NCBI GenBank assembly: GCA_022813865.1
Contig: JALDZX010000002.1
Span: 372,001 to 436,000, forward strand
Length of the DNA: 64,000 bases
From: Xylographa opegraphella
Lineage: Eukaryota
Direction: 5' to 3'
Shown: positions 53,778 to 61,494 of the stretch, one piece after another
Numbering within the stretch: position 1 is the first letter of the stretch
Layout: each line of letters opens with the position of its first letter
Made by a program: the position numbers and the translations under genes
Notes under the pieces: model-generated
Database searches by the model: none
What the model was told of the DNA's origin: nothing
The model's input: only the letters and a program-made list of their open reading frames with translations

Positions 53778-55244
53778 ATGAATTCTAGGTCGGGATTTAG
53801 CCCGACGAGCCCGCAACATATGGGAAGCAGTACAGCTTCCACACTCTCCTCTGCGCCAAATACTGGTTGGACGACACCGACTACTTCGTATCCCACGTCA
53901 GCCCGGTCGGACAAGGGCAGTGGGTGGCCGCCACGGAACTTGGGCCAGAGCATCGAGTCGCCTCCTGCAGAGATGGGCTCGCGCACAAAGCCTGGGAATC
54001 TGAGTCTCGTCAGTCCAGTCACTGTGGTTGCGGGCAAGAACACTGCAGGTCATGCGAAGCTCCACAAAAGAGAATATTCCTCCTCGTCGATCCCAACTCC
54101 GAAGACGGCAGCCTTCCCAGCATTCGATCCTAGTTATCAAGACATGGTCAGCCCTCCGGCAATATACCATGATGCCTATGCGCCGCCCTCGCCCGCGACA
54201 TCCATCCGAAGCAAAGTGAAGATAAAGCCTCTGTTGCGAAAACTCCAAGTACAAGAGAAAACATCACTCGACCTGTCCAGGTCGGCTGCTGAGAATGAAG
54301 GCCTAGGCATATACACCTCGAACAACACCAGAGATGGCCGTGGTAACTCGGATGCTAGCGGAGGAAGGCGGGGATATCACACTCGTACTACAAGCGGCAC
54401 CTCGCAAATGTCGTCGACCACGACGTTCAGCGTCCATCGATCAGGGTCACAGTACGTCCATCCCATGCGGCAAACCCCGCGTCCATTCACTCCCCCAGCG
54501 GTGCATTCACAGCACCCATCACTCGCAAACAGCGACCTCTCCTCCATCAACACACCCGATCGACCGCAGCTCTATCGCTATACTTCCTCATCCAACCCAT
54601 CCTCCTATGCTCCTCTGCCCACGCTCAAGCGCACTCCACCACCGCTTCACATCCGCACTCACTCCTCCTCACGCCTGACCTCGTCCTCACAGACGAACCT
54701 CCCCGGTACGCCATCATCATTGCGCTACGCCGACACCTTCGCCCCTCCAGACCCCATGCCCCTCACCGCGCGCTCGTCCTTTGATACCTTCCACAAACGC
54801 TCTCGCACCAATACGGCGACCGATCCCGCGGCCCAGCTCGCTGCTGTACAGGCCCTACGCGCGGAGTTCAATGCCCGCGAGACGGCTAAGGACCTGAAGT
54901 TCCAGCAAGCCACAGCCCGCCTGCAGCAAAAAGATGCTCGCAAGCAGGAGAAGCGCGATGAGTCCGCACGGAGGAAGTCGGAAGCACAGGAGAGGAAGAA
55001 AACACGGAGCACGGCTGCGAGCGAGAAAAGCGTGCCATTGAGTGCAGAGTATACTCAGACTCTGGCCGCGCCGATGGTGACGGGTTTTGATACGGAGGCG
55101 CAAGAGGTGAAGAGACCGAAGAGGGCAAGGACGGCGACGGCGGGGAGCGCAGGAAAGGCGGTGGGAAGCCAGTGGAGTTTGTTTTGGTTTCGGTTCAAGA
55201 CACTGTGGTTGAAATTCAAGAGGAGTATGTCGCGAGGTTTTTGA
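53778..55244 (+). CDS. Ser/Pro/Thr-rich hypothetical protein with a C-terminal coiled coil
   Basis: 488-aa ORF with conserved-looking islands KIKPLLRKL, LDLSRS, GLGIY and YVHPMRQTPRPFTPP, and an amphipathic aromatic C-terminus (WFRFKTLWLKFKR). Confidence 0.75.
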   Translation: MNSRSGFSPTSPQHMGSSTASTLSSAPNTGWTTPTTSYPTSARSDKGSGWPPRNLGQSIESPPAEMGSRTKPGNLSLVSPVTVVAGKNTAGHAKLHKREYSSSSIPTPKTAAFPAFDPSYQDMVSPPAIYHDAYAPPSPATSIRSKVKIKPLLRKLQVQEKTSLDLSRSAAENEGLGIYTSNNTRDGRGNSDASGGRRGYHTRTTSGTSQMSSTTTFSVHRSGSQYVHPMRQTPRPFTPPAVHSQHPSLANSDLSSINTPDRPQLYRYTSSSNPSSYAPLPTLKRTPPPLHIRTHSSSRLTSSSQTNLPGTPSSLRYADTFAPPDPMPLTARSSFDTFHKRSRTNTATDPAAQLAAVQALRAEFNARETAKDLKFQQATARLQQKDARKQEKRDESARRKSEAQERKKTRSTAASEKSVPLSAEYTQTLAAPMVTGFDTEAQEVKRPKRARTATAGSAGKAVGSQWSLFWFRFKTLWLKFKRSMSRGF

Positions 55245-56716
55245 GGCTTTGGAATCAGCAATGGTGGTGATGACGGATGGTAAGTTTAGGGTTGGTGACG
55301 TACGGACGGAATTTGATTACGAGCAACAACGAGGGTGCATAATCCCGTCAACGGAAGGCGTTTACACATATCATACCTTCGATGAGAAACCGGTGTACGG
55401 GGGCGGGGGATGGCGCGTGGTTTTGCATTCGGGGACATTTGTGGCGGATCCTTTTACGGCATGGGGTTCTGCGGCATCTTTTCCTTTCTTGTTGGAGGCC
55501 TCTTGGCTTTGAGCACGATACCACTGGCTGCAGCAGGCATGCTTTCTATTTGGGGCGATTTGGCACGGCGTCCGGAGTCCGCTTGGGCGTTGAGAACATA
55601 CGCGGGAGTTTTCCGGGGGCTGGTCTTTAATGGCGGTACAGGTACATATCGATGCTGCTCCCCTCACATAAGTGATCAGAATGCGCGCGGGCTTGGACAA
55701 TGAACCAATGAATGTCGAGATGCAAGATACTGCGATGTGTGTGTGAGGTGCTTATGATCCCTGATGCCGACGTCGTTATCGGCTTTTGAAGTCTTTGTCT
55801 CGCCTAACCAATACTTATCAGCCCACGATCCGAACACTCTCATCGCTCGAAAGATTCATAGCTCTCTAGATACCTGTTGCATCTCACAGCAGCTCGCCTG
55901 GCCACTACATCCCACTCCCACTGTCCCCAAACCACAGTTGCCCATGAATGCCCCCCTCACCCCCACACTGCCCCCGTCCACTACATCCTCCTTGCTCTAG
56001 CTACCCAACCGACACCCAGATCTGATCGATCCGAATGACTAGCTATATACCGCCCCATCCCTCCATTCCCCTCCCGCTCGTCCATCACGGTACGAACATA
56101 TACCCGAGTCGAAGTATACGTAGGACGTAGAACCCCCGATGGAGATCAAGTCCAAGTCAAGTCCCTAGCCTAATCTAACACATCCGTCCTCTCTCCGAAG
56201 CAGCGGGTGTCACATAGAGCCGCGAGAAGAAGGATTGGAAACCGAAATGTAGATTTTGTGCAGCGGACATCACCACGGTAGGCAACAAGCATGGGGTGCC
56301 CTCTCTGCCTCGGACATATCGTCCGCGAAAAAGGTATTCTGGATGATAAACGCCCGTCTTACTATTAGCTTTTAGAGGCACACCGCACGCAAGTCACTCG
56401 AAAACAGGGTTGAATGGCAATCTTTTTATTTATCCATCGAAGCAGAAATCTCTCCCTATTGCAGGGCCTATCAGATACATACAATGTGACGCGCGCACGA
56501 AGGATCGGGAAAGAAAAACAAAACAAAACCATGCATTTGTGCTTAATGGAACCTGTCTATAAACAAAAGCGACCCTATAGGTCCACAAGTATGGGCATCC
56601 CGCCTCACGTCGAGCTATCGTACAACTTTGATTTCGGCCACTCGGCCCCCCCTCCGCACCGGCACTCCTCCCACCACTGAAATTATGACCAGTCCCGTCC
56701 CCCCCCAACCCCCCAA

Positions 56717-57010
56717 CCGTAGACATACACCGAAGTCAGTCAATACGGAAGAAGGGAAGGGGGGAGTTGTGTAGACACCATCTCTTCCACCACGCCACCT
56801 TGACCAGACCCCCCCACCGTAGACATACACCGAAGTCAGTCAATACGGCAGGGGGGGCTGTGTGGACACCATCTCTCCCGTTTGCGCCTGCTCAATTGGT
56901 ACGACATACACCGAAGTCAGTCGAGTACCAAGAGCGCTACAAAGGGGCGGGAGAGATGGTGTTGTGTTGTGTGTGGTGGATAAGATGGCGACAGTACACC
57001 GAGACGGCCA
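56717..57010 (-). repeat. array of 3 (plus 1 degenerate) hairpins with a shared C(UUCG)G-capped core in the nucleoporin 3' UTR
   Basis: The core gacatacaccgaagtcagtc is identical at 56722, 56822 and 56903, with a degenerate copy at ~56990. Each core is flanked by inverted repeats. Confidence 0.85.
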
Positions 57011-57015
57011 GGATT

Positions 57016-60000
57016 TCAGTTGGACTTGTTCTCCTCCAGGAGGAGTGCCAGCTCCGCTGCCCTTTCTTTCGACCCGACCATAATAGTCCACTGACTTATC
57101 CTCCCGGTGTCGGTAGCGACACCGAAGGTCACCGTTTTGTCAGTGACGTGGTTGTAGGTCATGCCTTCCATAAGAGCGGTGTTGAGAATTATCTTGCCGA
57201 CCGTTTCCACCCGATGTACAATTCGAACTCTGCCTGTGGAGCGGTGTTTCAGAACTCTCAGGGGTCCAAGACCTTTCTTAACCCATTCCTTCTTTTGCAG
57301 CTCTAATGATTTTGCTTTGACCTCTAAGAGACATTCCTCATTCTCTTCGCCAGCACGAGCACTCGTAAGATCGATCTGTGGAAGGAGTGGCATAGCTGAC
57401 TGATCATCTTCTGCAGCACTTTCACCGCCGGTTGAGATCTCGGGAGAAGTAGTGCGCGAAGAAGTGGCAGAATTTGAAGATAGTGGCACAGCAAGGGAGC
57501 TAAAAGGTTTGGATGGTTCGCCAAATATAAAGCCAACAGCGGGAACTGGTGGACTTGACTTTGGCGAGGTTGAGAAAATTGACTCTGTCTTTGCACTCGG
57601 AGTGTTACTGAATGATGCTCCGAATGATGCTCCGAATGATGCTCCGAATGATGCTCCGAATGATGCTCCTAATGTAGTAGGCTGGCTAGCAAAAGAGTTT
57701 GTGGCCGGTTTCGCTCCAAACAGTGTAGAGGAGGGATTTTGACTCTGTTCATTCTCTATCGGCTTGGTTGGCGAGGGTGATGTAAAGCTCAGGGTCGGAG
57801 CAGTGCTTGCACTGCCAAACTTTATGGGAGTATTAATCTTCCACGTGGTATTGGGCTGCGGTCTTGGCAATGCCGTCTTGGGATTTGAAGAGCTATCTGA
57901 CGCGGTTCCGAACGGACCCATTGACTGGGAGTTCGAGAACGGCTGACCAAACAGACCGCTACGAGGGGCAGTTGGCGTTGACGCAGAGGTGCCTTGCAAT
58001 GTAGATGGCTGACCGAACAGCCCAATTGATCGCCCAGTTTCGTTCTGCTTGTTCTCGGACGCAGAGGGAATTTCGCGCTTAAGACTGCCATCAGAATTTG
58101 TCTCGATCCTATCGAAGATACTCCGTGGAGCTAAAATGGAGCTTGCGTCTGAGGCGAGGGCTGCTTCTATCTTGCTTGCTTGTGTTTCAGACTCGTCTTC
58201 ATCGCTACCTTCGCTCTGATCATCATCACCTTGAGCCTCATTGTTAACTTGCGTATTAAGATTTGCCCATGGATTCTGCCAATGCGACTCAGAAGGATTT
58301 TCGAGAACAAAAGGGTCTTCGAGAACAGAACTCGGGCCGGAGATGTCACTGGATGCAGATGCTACAGTTGCAGGTTGAGGAGATCTTGATGCCGACTTCG
58401 CATCCTTGGTGCTATGACCAAGAGCTTTGTTCGGCACAAACTTAAAAGTGGTATTAGTTTTTGCTTCTTCAATTTTTCGCTTTTTGGCCCGTTGCTCATC
58501 TTCATATTTACGTTCCCACGCTGCTTCCGCATCCTCACCGTCATCAGAGTCATACTCATCTGCTTTTCGTTTTGCTTTCGCCTCCTTGGCTATTTCTTCT
58601 TCCGTCTTCTTAGCACTCTGCCTGAATTGGCTCAAAAAGTTAGTACCAGAAGGTGTGCCGAAGCTGGGCACCTTGAAAGTAGAAGACTGCACAAGAGCAA
58701 CAGTCTTGTCCACCAGGGCAGGACCAGGAGTATTTGCAAAGAGGCTAGCACCGGGCTTACTAGGAGCGGCGGGAGCTTTCTGCAGTGTAGCAGCATTCAC
58801 ATTGAAGGTCGGTCCTTTATCTGGAGCGGAAGCACTGGCAGAGCTGCTGGCATTACCCTTGGCAGCTTTCGCAAATAAACGCGAAGTTTCAGTTTTTTGC
58901 GGTAGTGTAGGGTGGGTTATATTACCACGCGCTTTTTTGGCGTTGTCAGAAACCCCATTTTTGCCACTGCCTTTGCTGATTTCTTCCGTGGCTTTTCGCT
59001 TTGAATTGTTACTGTTTGACGAGGTCGTGAGAGGCCCGTCACCATTTGTCCAAGTAGCATTGTTGGCAATCTGCTTATTCAGCCCGTTGCCCTGATCCTC
59101 ACCAAGTCGTTTCCTTTTGGTGCCGGGATCTTGAAGCGATAAACTTCCATCACGGAGAATCAGATCCATCTTCGCTTGATAAAATCCAAGAACGCCAGCA
59201 TCTACGGGAAAGATAATGGCGCTGTCAATGTATTTCTTGAAAGCATGATTGAGCGATCTAATACGATAATGAGTGATGTACTCTCGCTTCTGGTTTTCGG
59301 TGAAATTTTTAGGACATGTTGGAGGCATTAGAGTTTCCATTTGCTGACCCGCCGATGAAGTTTTTTCTGAGTAAGATGATGCTTCCGAGGCTTCGATTGT
59401 GGTCTTCGCAATAGGAACGTTATTTGAAGTTGGAAAGGAGCCACCGCTCTGCGACGATGGCTCTATAGGAGTGCTATCTGAAGTAAAAACGAAGCCACTG
59501 CTTTGGGTCGACTTTGCAATAGGCGCATTACTTGATGGAGGAATGGAGCGACTGATCTGGGACGAAGGCGCTTCTTTGCTACTTGTGGGGAAAATTGTTG
59601 TTTGCGATGGATTGGAAGTAGGGATTAGCGGCTTGAACAAGGGTTCCTTTGTCGAAGCTAGCTTTGGCGTTGCCGCTTCGCCTCCATTTGACATATGAGT
59701 GGGCTGAAAGCTCTGAGATGTGGCTGGAGTAGGTAATAACGACTTGAACAACGGTGCCTTTCTCGGGGCTGGCGTTGGTGTCATCGCTTCGCTCCCATTT
59801 GACATATGAGTGGGCTGAAAACTCTGAGATGTATCGGAAGGAGGGATTGGCGGATTGAACATCGTTCGGCTTGTCGGAGCAGGCCTTGGCGTATGGTCTT
59901 CGTCCCCATCTGACATATGAGTGGACTCGATGGCCTGAGACGTGTCCATGTCGGAGTCAAGCATTTCGGCTTCATTGGCGTCCGCCGCGTTAATAGGGTT

Positions 60001-61494
60001 TGAACCAGGGTTGTGAGTGGCTGTACGTGCTACATCAGATGGGCTGGGAGGATTCCACGATGATCCGAAACTGAAACTTTGTGGAGCAAATGAGCTTGAC
60101 GGCGCAGGCGAGCAGTCTGATGGCTGTTGGGATTCGTAAGAAGGATCGGAGATTGACATGGGATCTTCGCCAACTTTTGAGGCCAGCGAATCCGTTCCTA
60201 TCGCTGTCTTGCCCATTGTCGAACTGACGCTACCCAGTGATGAACTGGTGTCTGACTGGCCCGTTGACATATGGCAATCTTTGGGACTCAGTGGTGGATT
60301 AACATGGGTGCCGGAATCAGACTCTGATCCATGCTCCTGGTCCTCCTGATCCTCCTCCTGCTGTTGCGGCTGCCTATAAGGTTGATTGAAGCCACCATCG
60401 AAAGAAGATGATTGCTGTTGCGGCTGACCGTTGCCTGGAGAGACAAACTGTGATGGCTGCTGCTGGTGTTGCTGGTCAGACGATTGATAAGGGTCTCCTA
60501 AGAAAGATGATTGAGCTGGCGCCTGGAGATTCGTGAAAGATGATTGAGCTGGCGCCTGGAAATTCGTGAAAGAGGACTGTGCTGGCTGTGCTGGCGGTGC
60601 TGGCTGTGCTGGCTGAGTTGGTTGTGCTGGCTGTGCTTGCTGTGGTCGCTTGCCAAATTCCCGAAAGGTCACCGCAAAGAACGACGACTGTGGTTGTGGT
60701 TGTTGCTCCTGCTGTTGCGGCTGCTGCGGTGGTGGCTGCTGCTGCTGCTGTGGCTGAGGAACGTATTGGCTGGAAGGATTTGATAACGACTCCTTTTTCA
60801 GAGCATCCGTGAAAGCACTCTTGGTGTTATATGGAATTTGATCTGCTGGACTCTGTAGGAAAGGAGCATTTGGAGCCCACAGCTTTCCTTCGTTGTTTTT
60901 ATTCAGATTAGGATCACATCTATAGATTACTGGTCCTTTTGGCGGCGGCGTTGCAGGTATTACCTGTGCTGGAGCGGGTGTAGTGGACGGCATCGAGAAA
61001 ATGCTGCCTGCATAACCACTCATGGGATTAACACCGTTAGACGGCTGGGCAACCCCTGATGCGAACGGATTATTGACAGGAAGTGTGCCGCCATTTGGGT
61101 TGAAATCAAATCCAGAGCCTCCAGGTGTATCTGACTGCGGAACAAAGCCTGGAGACATGGTAGAAATGTTATATTCACGAAGGTTGAAAGCTGGCGAGTG
61201 TATATCGAGACCTGGATTGATAGTGGTTGACGTAGATAGGGAGTTCTGTTGACTATTGCTACCGTTGGCTATATTTGGATCGACGTTGTCAAATGGAACA
61301 TGAGGTTGCTGCTGTTGCCCCAAACCAGTTCCATGGTTTTGGCCTGGAAGAGTGCCAGGCACTCTTCCTGCTCTTCGACCGGTCGCCATCCTGTGTTGAG
61401 CATCAGCATCGCGTCTGGACGTTGTACGGCTAACATGAATTGGATCGTTGTATGCTCTATCACGATTCGTGCGAAGGTTATAACGTTTCGGCAT
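57016..61494 (-). CDS. FG-nucleoporin with a C-terminal Ran-binding domain, Nup2-like
   Basis: 1492-aa ORF with scattered FG/FxFG motifs, a central helical block REYITHYRIRSLNHAFKKY and a C-terminal RanBD1-like domain (GEENEE...WVKKGLGPLRVLKH...GRVRIVHR). Confidence 0.8.
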   Translation of the reverse strand: MPKRYNLRTNRDRAYNDPIHVSRTTSRRDADAQHRMATGRRAGRVPGTLPGQNHGTGLGQQQQPHVPFDNVDPNIANGSNSQQNSLSTSTTINPGLDIHSPAFNLREYNISTMSPGFVPQSDTPGGSGFDFNPNGGTLPVNNPFASGVAQPSNGVNPMSGYAGSIFSMPSTTPAPAQVIPATPPPKGPVIYRCDPNLNKNNEGKLWAPNAPFLQSPADQIPYNTKSAFTDALKKESLSNPSSQYVPQPQQQQQPPPQQPQQQEQQPQPQSSFFAVTFREFGKRPQQAQPAQPTQPAQPAPPAQPAQSSFTNFQAPAQSSFTNLQAPAQSSFLGDPYQSSDQQHQQQPSQFVSPGNGQPQQQSSSFDGGFNQPYRQPQQQEEDQEDQEHGSESDSGTHVNPPLSPKDCHMSTGQSDTSSSLGSVSSTMGKTAIGTDSLASKVGEDPMSISDPSYESQQPSDCSPAPSSSFAPQSFSFGSSWNPPSPSDVARTATHNPGSNPINAADANEAEMLDSDMDTSQAIESTHMSDGDEDHTPRPAPTSRTMFNPPIPPSDTSQSFQPTHMSNGSEAMTPTPAPRKAPLFKSLLPTPATSQSFQPTHMSNGGEAATPKLASTKEPLFKPLIPTSNPSQTTIFPTSSKEAPSSQISRSIPPSSNAPIAKSTQSSGFVFTSDSTPIEPSSQSGGSFPTSNNVPIAKTTIEASEASSYSEKTSSAGQQMETLMPPTCPKNFTENQKREYITHYRIRSLNHAFKKYIDSAIIFPVDAGVLGFYQAKMDLILRDGSLSLQDPGTKRKRLGEDQGNGLNKQIANNATWTNGDGPLTTSSNSNNSKRKATEEISKGSGKNGVSDNAKKARGNITHPTLPQKTETSRLFAKAAKGNASSSASASAPDKGPTFNVNAATLQKAPAAPSKPGASLFANTPGPALVDKTVALVQSSTFKVPSFGTPSGTNFLSQFRQSAKKTEEEIAKEAKAKRKADEYDSDDGEDAEAAWERKYEDEQRAKKRKIEEAKTNTTFKFVPNKALGHSTKDAKSASRSPQPATVASASSDISGPSSVLEDPFVLENPSESHWQNPWANLNTQVNNEAQGDDDQSEGSDEDESETQASKIEAALASDASSILAPRSIFDRIETNSDGSLKREIPSASENKQNETGRSIGLFGQPSTLQGTSASTPTAPRSGLFGQPFSNSQSMGPFGTASDSSSNPKTALPRPQPNTTWKINTPIKFGSASTAPTLSFTSPSPTKPIENEQSQNPSSTLFGAKPATNSFASQPTTLGASFGASFGASFGASFGASFSNTPSAKTESIFSTSPKSSPPVPAVGFIFGEPSKPFSSLAVPLSSNSATSSRTTSPEISTGGESAAEDDQSAMPLLPQIDLTSARAGEENEECLLEVKAKSLELQKKEWVKKGLGPLRVLKHRSTGRVRIVHRVETVGKIILNTALMEGMTYNHVTDKTVTFGVATDTGRISQWTIMVGSKERAAELALLLEENKSN
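57610..57669. repeat. 12-bp perfect tandem repeat x5 encoding (GASF)n within the nucleoporin
   Basis: (gaatgatgctcc)5. Confidence 0.95.
59613..59945 (-). repeat. 111-bp (37-aa) intragenic repeat x3 in the nucleoporin
   Basis: ccat(t/c)tgacatatgagtgg at 59684, 59795 and 59906. The protein repeats TSQxxxxTHMSxG...TP...F. Confidence 0.85.

Follow-up and report, generated by a model that had tools for sequence, protein, structure and literature searches.

The question raised by this locus is what a row of similar hairpins does behind the stop codon of a nucleoporin gene. The locus lies in a 64-kb window of contig JALDZX010000002.1 of Xylographa opegraphella (the whole stretch of DNA analyzed, to which all coordinates refer), where three hairpins on the minus strand follow an open reading frame (ORF) for a Nup2-like protein. 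At a probability of about 0.62, the array would be a local case of an undescribed structured RNA motif of Lecanoromycetes, acting as a multivalent RNA-binding-protein site that sets the fate of the mRNAs concerned.

Three hairpins downstream of a Nup2-like gene

The Nup2-like ORF (57016..61494, minus strand; stop codon 57016-57018) encodes 1492 aa with FG repeats and a C-terminal RanBD, which was matched by Pfam Ran_BP1 at residues 1380-1491 (E 8.2e-16). The closest named homologues of residues 1000-1492 are found in Xylographa pallens (70%), X. bjoerkii (63%), and X. trunciseda (62%), followed by Lambiella (39%). The 20-nt apex of the hairpins, GACUGACUUCGGUGUAUGUC, occurs exactly three times on the minus strand of the window, at 56722-41, 56822-41, and 56903-22, with the letters and positions reported in a first-pass annotation of this DNA. 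The three apexes lie 93 to 293 nt past the stop codon. A search that allowed up to three mismatches returned three matches in 64 kb, compared to 0.01 expected, and none of 100 shuffles reached three. This mismatch-tolerant scan of the 64-kb window revealed no apex or hairpin copy beyond these.

Hairpin 3 (56866..56962, minus strand) is the canonical family member and fits the family consensus given below exactly. It is enclosed by a perfect 15-nt inverted repeat (56866-80/56948-62), which forms a 15-bp outer stem. This stem is followed inward by a GCUC/GAGC tier, the closing stem UUGGUAC/GUACCAA, a UC bulge, and the apex at 56903-56922; the core of this copy spans 56896-56931. The minimum free energy (MFE) of hairpin 3 is -50.5 kcal/mol (z -7.2), and the covariance model of the family, R1, scores it at 62.6 bits. 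Hairpin 2 (56803..56861, minus strand; apex 56822-56841; MFE -35.3 kcal/mol, z -5.1; R1 60.5 bits) has a C7/G7 lower stem, a CCGUA/UACGG closing stem, and a UU bulge. Hairpin 1 (56700..56766, minus strand; apex 56722-56741; MFE -39.1 kcal/mol, z -5.2; R1 60.1 bits) is a tandem duplicate of hairpin 2, and its lower stems likewise join a C-run to a G-run. The lower stems thus differ between copies and still pair, as the first-pass annotation had described. For each of the three extended hairpins, none of 200 shuffles folded as well.

Copies 1 and 2 (56717-48 and 56817-48) have the CCGUA/UACGG stem in common. Direct repeats run through both hairpins, one of 49 nt with 92% identity at a spacing of 100 and one of 29 nt with 86% identity at a spacing of 91. 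Because these copies arose by tandem duplication of about 100 nt, they represent a single evolutionary event and are not independent of each other. In the lower stems of hairpins 1 and 2 (56700-56721, 56749-56766, 56803-56816, and 56849-56861, minus strand), the C-runs pair with G-runs of G6 to G8. The G-runs after hairpin 1 (GGGGGGUUGGGGGGGGACGGG, mRNA sense) could alternatively form a G-quadruplex. The 5' arm of the outer stem of hairpin 3 has two possible partners, the arm after hairpin 3 (15 of 15 nt) and a duplicate of that arm after hairpin 2 (88% of 17 nt); the regions concerned are 56775-56791 and 56866-56880 versus 56946-56962. Because either duplicate arm can pair, hairpins 3 and 2 could be jointly enclosed by an alternative fold, which is probably a by-product of the tandem duplication.

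The whole 326 nt of the array folded with a z of -8.7 on the minus strand (mRNA sense) and of -6.5 on the plus strand. Since both strands fold about equally well, the window alone does not decide which of them carries the structure.

Related hairpins in other Lecanoromycete-like fungi

Relatives of the motif were taken from one exact-match scan with the 20-mer of JGI metagenome contigs (up to 833 kb), which belong to one related series of assemblies. The scan revealed 24 matches at 21 metagenome loci (numbered with the prefix L) of Lecanoromycete-like fungi; 596 billion bases of prokaryote genomes contained no exact match. Together with the three copies of the window, the 27 instances represent 19 distinct 100-nt contexts. 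Related fungi thus keep the motif behind other genes, at orthologous positions, and further contigs of the source genome carry it as well (see below); the first-pass annotation had proposed to look in both.

At 11 of the 13 loci examined, a sense ORF of at least 346 aa (within the 1.5-kb flank) ends 97 to 334 nt before the first motif. The ORFs at these 11 loci belong to two families. One is a Cep57-like protein, in which the Cep57 microtubule-binding domain (Pfam Cep57_MT_bd) was recognized at L011 (E 3.2e-28) and L001 (E 6.3e-30). The other is a protein with a KEN motif, represented by six diverged orthologues (L005, L008, L009, L004, L002, and L012) with 43 to 79% amino acid identity. The KEN motif is invariant in 23 of 23 aligned homologues, and named relatives of the protein occur in Lepraria, Lecanora, Cladonia, Alectoria, Stereocaulon, and Psora (Lecanoromycetidae). 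No Pfam family was reached at threshold and no solved relative was found.

The KEN-motif protein (L005:82-1167; homologues P0002-P0121) is Lecanoromycete-wide and about 365 aa long. It contains invariant KEN..PP, a RSPxKxKxxGILSRRR stretch, and a C-terminal IWESESAK. A DNA-ligase gene always comes next after the KEN gene in the loci seen. KEN motifs mark substrates of the anaphase-promoting complex/cyclosome (APC/C), and by its sequence the protein is possibly such a substrate. An assignment as securin, for which there was a weak Atlas lead only (0.79), was not adopted.

A further gene context is represented by the pair L014/L019. These two loci are 98% identical, too close for the comparison to reveal exons. 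The upstream protein of the pair is represented by its C-terminal 152 residues, which are 98% identical to P0242. Homologues of P0242 are named Nucleoporin NUP53 in Uncinocarpus and Coccidioides, and one homologue passes the Pfam RRM_Nup35 cut-off (28.1 versus 24 bits). The ORF downstream of the L014 hairpin had no Atlas match, and tblastn and tblastx revealed no relation of L014 to the window or to the other loci. Five copies of a different, 43-nt element (60 to 79% identity, spacing 67 to 141 nt) lie at L014:441-910 and also in L019. The row starts where the Nup53/35-like ORF has its last codons and continues into the 3' region. These copies could form a short hairpin with a compensated stem (GGACA/UGUCC versus GGAGA/UCUCC) and a conserved UUGAGACCGAAUGGCA loop; none was found in the window or in the other 19 loci.

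In all four gene contexts, the motif is in sense orientation relative to the upstream ORF. It starts 93 to 437 nt after the stop codon in three contexts and 1040 nt after it in the fourth. Downstream of the hairpins, the Cep57-like gene is followed by a convergent MAT1 gene and the window array by a convergent ORF. The KEN gene has a DNA-ligase ORF on its own strand, which lies 550 nt or more away. Because these neighbors differ, the 3' end of the upstream gene is the sole context common to the hairpins. The nucleoporin of the window is closest to Xylographa (Ostropomycetidae), and the KEN protein is closest to Lecanoromycetidae.

Covariation and strand specificity of the hairpin family

Two alignments were used, a structure-blind MAFFT alignment of 17 hairpins and a covariance-model alignment of 22 copies. 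In mRNA sense, the consensus consists of GCUC, one variable nucleotide, a stem of 5 to 7 bp ending in GUA, a UY bulge, and GAC-UG-AC-UNCG-GU-GUAU-GUC, followed by UAC.., U(U/C), and GAGC. This core measures about 46 nt. In many cases a variable outer stem prolongs it; L009, L011, and L014 have none.

The closing stems across loci read CCAGUA/UACUGG, CUGUA/UACAG, UUCGUA/UACGAA, CCAUG/UGUGG, CCGGUA/UAUCGG, UUGGUAC/GUACCAA, and CCGUA/UACGG; all differ and yet all pair. The contrast between the last two, the stems of the window, had already been read as compensatory change in the first-pass annotation, and the family bears this out. In the 17-hairpin alignment, 92.6% of the cells at paired positions are paired compared to 83.6% in shuffles, none of 500 shuffles was as high, and both sides have changed in 7 of the 16 pairs. 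When the partner register was shifted by one to three columns, pairing fell to 24 to 46%. The covariation picture of the 22-row model alignment agrees.

The strand was indicated by wobble pairs. G.U cells outnumber A.C cells by 35 to 6, and pairing is 93.9% in sense and 85.1% in antisense orientation. This excess shows, at the level of the compared sequences, selection on one RNA strand. The claim that the structure belongs to the mRNA strand was thus upheld across loci, whereas the window by itself would not have carried it.

The apex can be folded in two registers. C(UUCG)G is an extra-stable RNA tetraloop, and the first-pass annotation had read the apex in this way. The letters fit this reading, since U-N-C-G is kept in 21 of 22 copies of the model alignment (as UUCG, UCCG, or UGCG). 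The energy model does not: in ViennaRNA, a UUCGGU hexaloop combined with a 2x2 internal loop comes out at -3.3 kcal/mol and is favored, whereas the C(UUCG)G tetraloop, which goes with a 2x4 loop, reaches -0.8 kcal/mol. Because the energy model favors the hexaloop, the tetraloop reading rests on comparative variants. In one second copy, the loop is swapped for an extended ACUU/GAGU stem with a GUUG loop while the AC/GU pairs are retained. Two second copies have a 2-nt insertion on the GUAU side of the internal loop. These variants favor the register with AC/GU pairs and a tetraloop, short of proof.

The apex also contains GUAUGU, a perfect hexamer of the fungal 5' splice site. On the other side of the internal loop stands CUGAC, which resembles a branch point. 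The element could therefore be imagined as a splice-signal decoy, whose apex might engage U1, BBP, or U2, or as an unusual intron of the 3' untranslated region (UTR). Both strings are invariant in all 22 copies, and their chance co-occurrence in one 20-mer is unlikely by an estimate made post hoc. Their order in the hairpin is that of a branch point before a donor, which is the wrong one for an intron. The candidate boundaries GUAUYG...UUGAG lack a G at +5 and use a disfavored GAG acceptor. The intron between them would measure about 35 nt, and these boundaries are missing from L009, L011, and window copies 1 and 2. For an intron between tandem copies, the first AG lies at least 30 nt past the branch point. 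The intron or introner-like reading was rejected on order, boundaries, and length, and a role of the apex in splicing altogether seems scarcely credible.

Tandem copies as conserved islands

A second copy was found 102 to 165 nt downstream of the first in 11 of the 13 metagenome loci checked. L004, L008, and L016 carry exact doublets, and the covariance model revealed a diverged second copy in L005, L009, L015, L020, L012, L002, and L001. L011 and the L014/L019 pair have a single copy. The start-to-start spacing is exactly 106 nt (starts 1501 and 1607) both in L005/L008/L016 and in L009/L015/L020, two groups with about 60% amino acid identity. A constant spacing of 106 nt over a spacer that cannot be aligned hints at a constraint on spacing.

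The footprint of selection was determined from the aligned 3' regions of the six KEN-gene orthologues as the share of columns invariant in all six. All six have both hairpins at the orthologous place. Invariant columns make up 54% of hairpin 1, the apex of which was fixed by the search, and 63% of hairpin 2, which was not search-selected in four of the six orthologues. The share falls to 3% between the stop codon and hairpin 1 and to 1% both in the spacer and in the 200 nt beyond hairpin 2; for the final 150 nt of the coding sequence (CDS) it is 16%. The hairpins are the sole conserved islands in unalignable sequence and are better kept than the end of the protein.

These data bear on the view that the hairpins are independent small noncoding RNA genes which tend to lie downstream of these protein genes. 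The hairpin of L014/L019, 1 kb from the nearest stop codon, would agree with such a gene. In the other three contexts, the hairpins stand at a fixed short distance behind the ORF on the same strand. Outside the hairpins, there is no conserved sequence fit for a promoter or for the rest of an RNA, and no Rfam family was matched. We give this view a slim chance.

Dispersed copies in the source genome

The array region was compared with contigs of the run that is its probable source and of two runs from the same study. On a 26.7-kb contig, the sequence 56820-56960 (from the apex of hairpin 2 through hairpin 3) recurs with 13 differences and 3 gaps. A second contig, 10.0 kb long, shows 14 differences over 56876-56962, and a third other contig matches 56721-56743 only. 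The flanks of all matching other contigs are unrelated to the window. In a same-study run of another organism, two short low-depth contigs match 33 and 59 nt. By these sequence matches, the source genome contains the hairpin element as a small dispersed family. Two of the listed contig differences are C-to-U changes in a stem on the mRNA sense that keep a U.G pair; on the other strand they would be A.C mismatches.

The hairpin behind the Cep57-like gene is preceded, in motif sense, by a short run of CUUCCAC(A) repeats (L001:1521-1570, minus strand). The same heptamer, reverse-complemented, occurs in the flank of one extra source-genome copy (behind 56960). The contig of this extra copy might be the Cep57-like locus.

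A dispersed palindrome may be a miniature inverted-repeat transposable element (MITE) or a similar mobile repeat that landed at these places by chance and has no function for the host. Like MITEs, the hairpins are short palindromic DNA at several loci of one genome, and homology ends with an inverted repeat: the source-genome copies on other contigs are about 84 to 90% similar up to the 15-nt repeat. The palindromic form itself and the recent tandem duplication in the window also fit this explanation. Unlike MITEs, they combine variable arms with an invariant center, which is the reverse of transposon termini; the first-pass annotation had itself named a match to the termini of a mobile family as the observation that would speak against an RNA element. 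Both hairpins are retained in six of six KEN-gene orthologues, which share 43 to 79% amino acid identity and have unalignable flanks. The orientation is always that of the sense strand, with the bias of G.U over A.C. The copy number is low, the rest of the 64-kb window is free of copies, and the 56866-56962 hairpin shows no evident target-site duplication at its ends. A functionless MITE as the sole explanation appears largely refuted by these comparisons, and we consider it very improbable.

Comparison with known RNA elements

A search of the window against Rfam 15 returned no family at the gathering threshold, the best sub-threshold match scoring 22.5 bits versus 71.8, and the seven related loci searched gave no match at E<=0.01. 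The first-pass annotation had likewise not recognized it as a described motif. All sub-threshold matches were to microRNA precursor models. Together with the stability of hairpins of 60 to 100 nt, they could be taken to suggest that Dicer cuts small (microRNA-like) RNAs from the 3' region, which was one function offered in the first-pass annotation. The scores are far under threshold, and several family members have a stem of only about 15 bp. In microRNA-like hairpins one arm is conserved while the loop may vary, and in this motif the loop and apex are invariant while the arms freely covary. Small-RNA precursors are accordingly disfavored and seem hardly plausible.

Two published surveys of fungal structured RNAs were compared. 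Li and Breaker (2017; PMC5640933) described motifs in the 3' UTRs of rps0 and rps20, and their SART-1 motif also has a UNCG loop. Gao, Jones, and Rivas (2021; PMC8216456) tabled 17 structures, including 3'-UTR elements of thioredoxin, RING-finger, thioesterase, GLY1, and MET13 genes, mostly single-copy per genome. The main text of each (PMC5640933 and PMC8216456), taken apart from figures and supplements, contains no occurrence of UUCG, nucleoporin, spindle, or cell cycle, and the table of 17 structures names no motif of the genes concerned. The motif resembles those described in the text of the surveys (PMC5640933, PMC8216456) in being a conserved, covarying 3'-UTR hairpin of Pezizomycotina genes, with functions mostly unassigned. 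It differs from them in that the survey motifs belong to one gene each and are mostly single-copy, whereas the lichen motif spans at least four unrelated genes and forms tandem arrays. Exact motif strings (DNA, RNA, and reverse complement) had no match in about 8.4 million full texts, and keyword literature searches likewise gave none. Within Rfam 15, the text of the two fungal surveys, and the exact-string literature, the motif is undescribed; its general kind is known, and the motif as such is new.

The known kind is represented by several elements. The iron-responsive elements (IRE) in the transferrin-receptor 3' UTR are tandem hairpins at which multivalent protein binding controls mRNA stability. 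Like the IRE, which is bound by IRP, the motif consists of several small hairpins in tandem with an invariant loop and bulge and with stems that vary yet pair. Unlike the IRE, it occurs in another lineage and gene set and has an unrelated sequence and geometry. Membership in the IRE family was rejected for all copies, because the CAGUGN apical loop and the single C bulge 5 bp below it, which define the family, are missing.

The histone stem-loop bound by SLBP, the Smaug/Vts1 recognition element (SRE), and the constitutive decay element (CDE) bound by Roquin are short 3'-UTR hairpins that mark related mRNAs for common control; SRE and CDE also occur in tandem. The motif differs from these in lacking UYUN on a 6-bp stem, CNGG, and a pyrimidine-purine-pyrimidine triloop, respectively. 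Its conserved unpaired bases form an internal loop and a bulge beneath the UNCG cap. Membership in the histone stem-loop family was rejected on the defining loop. As an SRE, the standard loop UUCGGU fails for lack of C-N-G-G, and the UCCG variant of L005 alone would fit the usual definition.

Flanking features of the window

The first-pass annotation had also claimed a degenerate fourth copy starting 6 nt past the stop codon (56986..57010, minus strand). The region shares 12 apex letters, in the form UCGGUGUA..UGUC, but its fold is no better than that of shuffles (z 0.06), and covariance model R1 did not recover it at E<=10 with filters off. It was rejected as a family member and is at most a relic. 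A covariance-model match inside the CDS (57084-57143) was weak (E 1.3) and was taken as chance.

A GC-poor, U-rich stretch (56400..56600, minus strand) lies 100 to 300 nt past hairpin 1. Its GC content is 0.42 (56400-56599) compared to 0.52 to 0.60 around it. By composition, the stretch is a candidate 3'-end processing zone. A convergent ORF of 488 aa (53778-55244, plus strand) lies downstream of the array, with a gap of 1.77 kb between the two stop codons, and it had no Pfam match.

Interpretation of the array

The comparisons suggest that purifying selection acts on a structured RNA element of the sense strand, which is common to at least four unrelated genes and to two Lecanoromycetes subclasses. 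From the position of the hairpins, the strand-specific selection, and the U-rich zone after the window array, we infer that they lie inside the mature mRNA. The reading as a protein-binding site is suggested because invariant unpaired nucleotides stand over covarying stems and in tandem, as in the IRE, the SLBP hairpin, SRE, and CDE. Each hairpin would then be a sequence- and shape-specific site for one trans-acting RNA-binding protein. The putative protein would read the invariant unpaired nucleotides, namely the UG/GUAU internal loop and the UY bulge, while the UNCG cap and the covarying stems would serve only to hold the shape. Tandem copies would provide avidity. The protein would set the joint fate of the mRNAs; the best guess is that their stability or translation would be timed with the duplication of pores and spindle poles and with mitosis, and a second choice would be tethering for local translation at the nuclear envelope.

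Several observations weigh against this reading. The exact-match search itself accounts for part of the apex invariance in first copies, and the apex fold is ambiguous by energy. Window copies 1 and 2 lack the GCUC/GAGC tier and have C-runs and G-runs in its place. The two source-genome contigs that resemble the long hairpin 3 at about 84 to 90%, with homology that stops at the end of the inverted repeat, look like recent copying of a module. The L014/L019 hairpin stands about 1 kb past the nearest upstream stop codon, that of the Nup53/35-like C-terminus in sense orientation. There are only four gene contexts, so that the argument from sense orientation alone is worth 1 in 16, and the pore, pole, and mitosis theme rests on few genes, one of them without an assigned function. 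In addition, the poly(A) site may fall ahead of the array, inside it, or past it.

The position of the poly(A) site leads to the alternative that the hairpins are a cotranscriptional processing or termination signal at or past this site, read by an endonuclease (RNase III-like or other) or by a termination factor. They would then define or back up 3'-end formation between closely spaced genes. In yeast, fail-safe terminators are built of RNase III hairpins. This alternative would agree with the conserved sense-strand structure, the inclusion of which in the mature UTR is putative. Some copies have near-perfect stems of 25 to 35 bp, a form cut by double-strand-specific nucleases, and tight or convergent gene pairs occur in three of the four contexts. 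Against it, long outer stems are an optional feature, being absent in L009, L011, and L014, and the invariant part is the small apex. The UNCG loops differ from the AGNN tetraloops of substrates of yeast Rnt1, and membership among these substrates was rejected on this ground. The first hairpin lies only 93 to 331 nt past the stop codon in three of the four contexts, which is the ordinary range of fungal 3' UTRs, and the GC-poor, U-rich zone of the window comes after the array, not before it. A processing signal is considered unlikely.

The protein-binding-site reading can be extended to the set of genes. Cep57_MT_bd proteins include spindle-pole components. By their predicted products, the Nup2-like (basket), Nup53/35-like (inner-ring), Cep57-like, and KEN genes suggest a set devoted to nuclear-envelope machines and mitosis. 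The genes might form a Lecanoromycete post-transcriptional regulon for nuclear-envelope machines, in which a single reader protein would time or place translation with pore and pole duplication; this extension is tentative, and we regard it as doubtful. As reader, a pore protein with an RRM-type fold is conceivable; one example would be the Nup53/35 protein, the gene of which itself bears the hairpin. The hairpin module could be copied between 3' UTRs, and the regulon could grow by such a MITE-like route because near-identical long forms occur on three source-genome contigs.

Significance

Very little is known of gene control at the RNA level in lichen-forming fungi. Published screens for structured RNAs in fungi began from model species and would therefore miss a lineage-restricted motif. 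The element is small and sharply defined, which makes it a bait for the reader protein and a candidate new RNA family for curation. With copy numbers of two, three, and perhaps a decayed fourth, and with near-identical copies in one genome, it offers a case for the spread of a hairpin among 3' UTRs. The element may also show how cells coordinate the production of nuclear-envelope machines.

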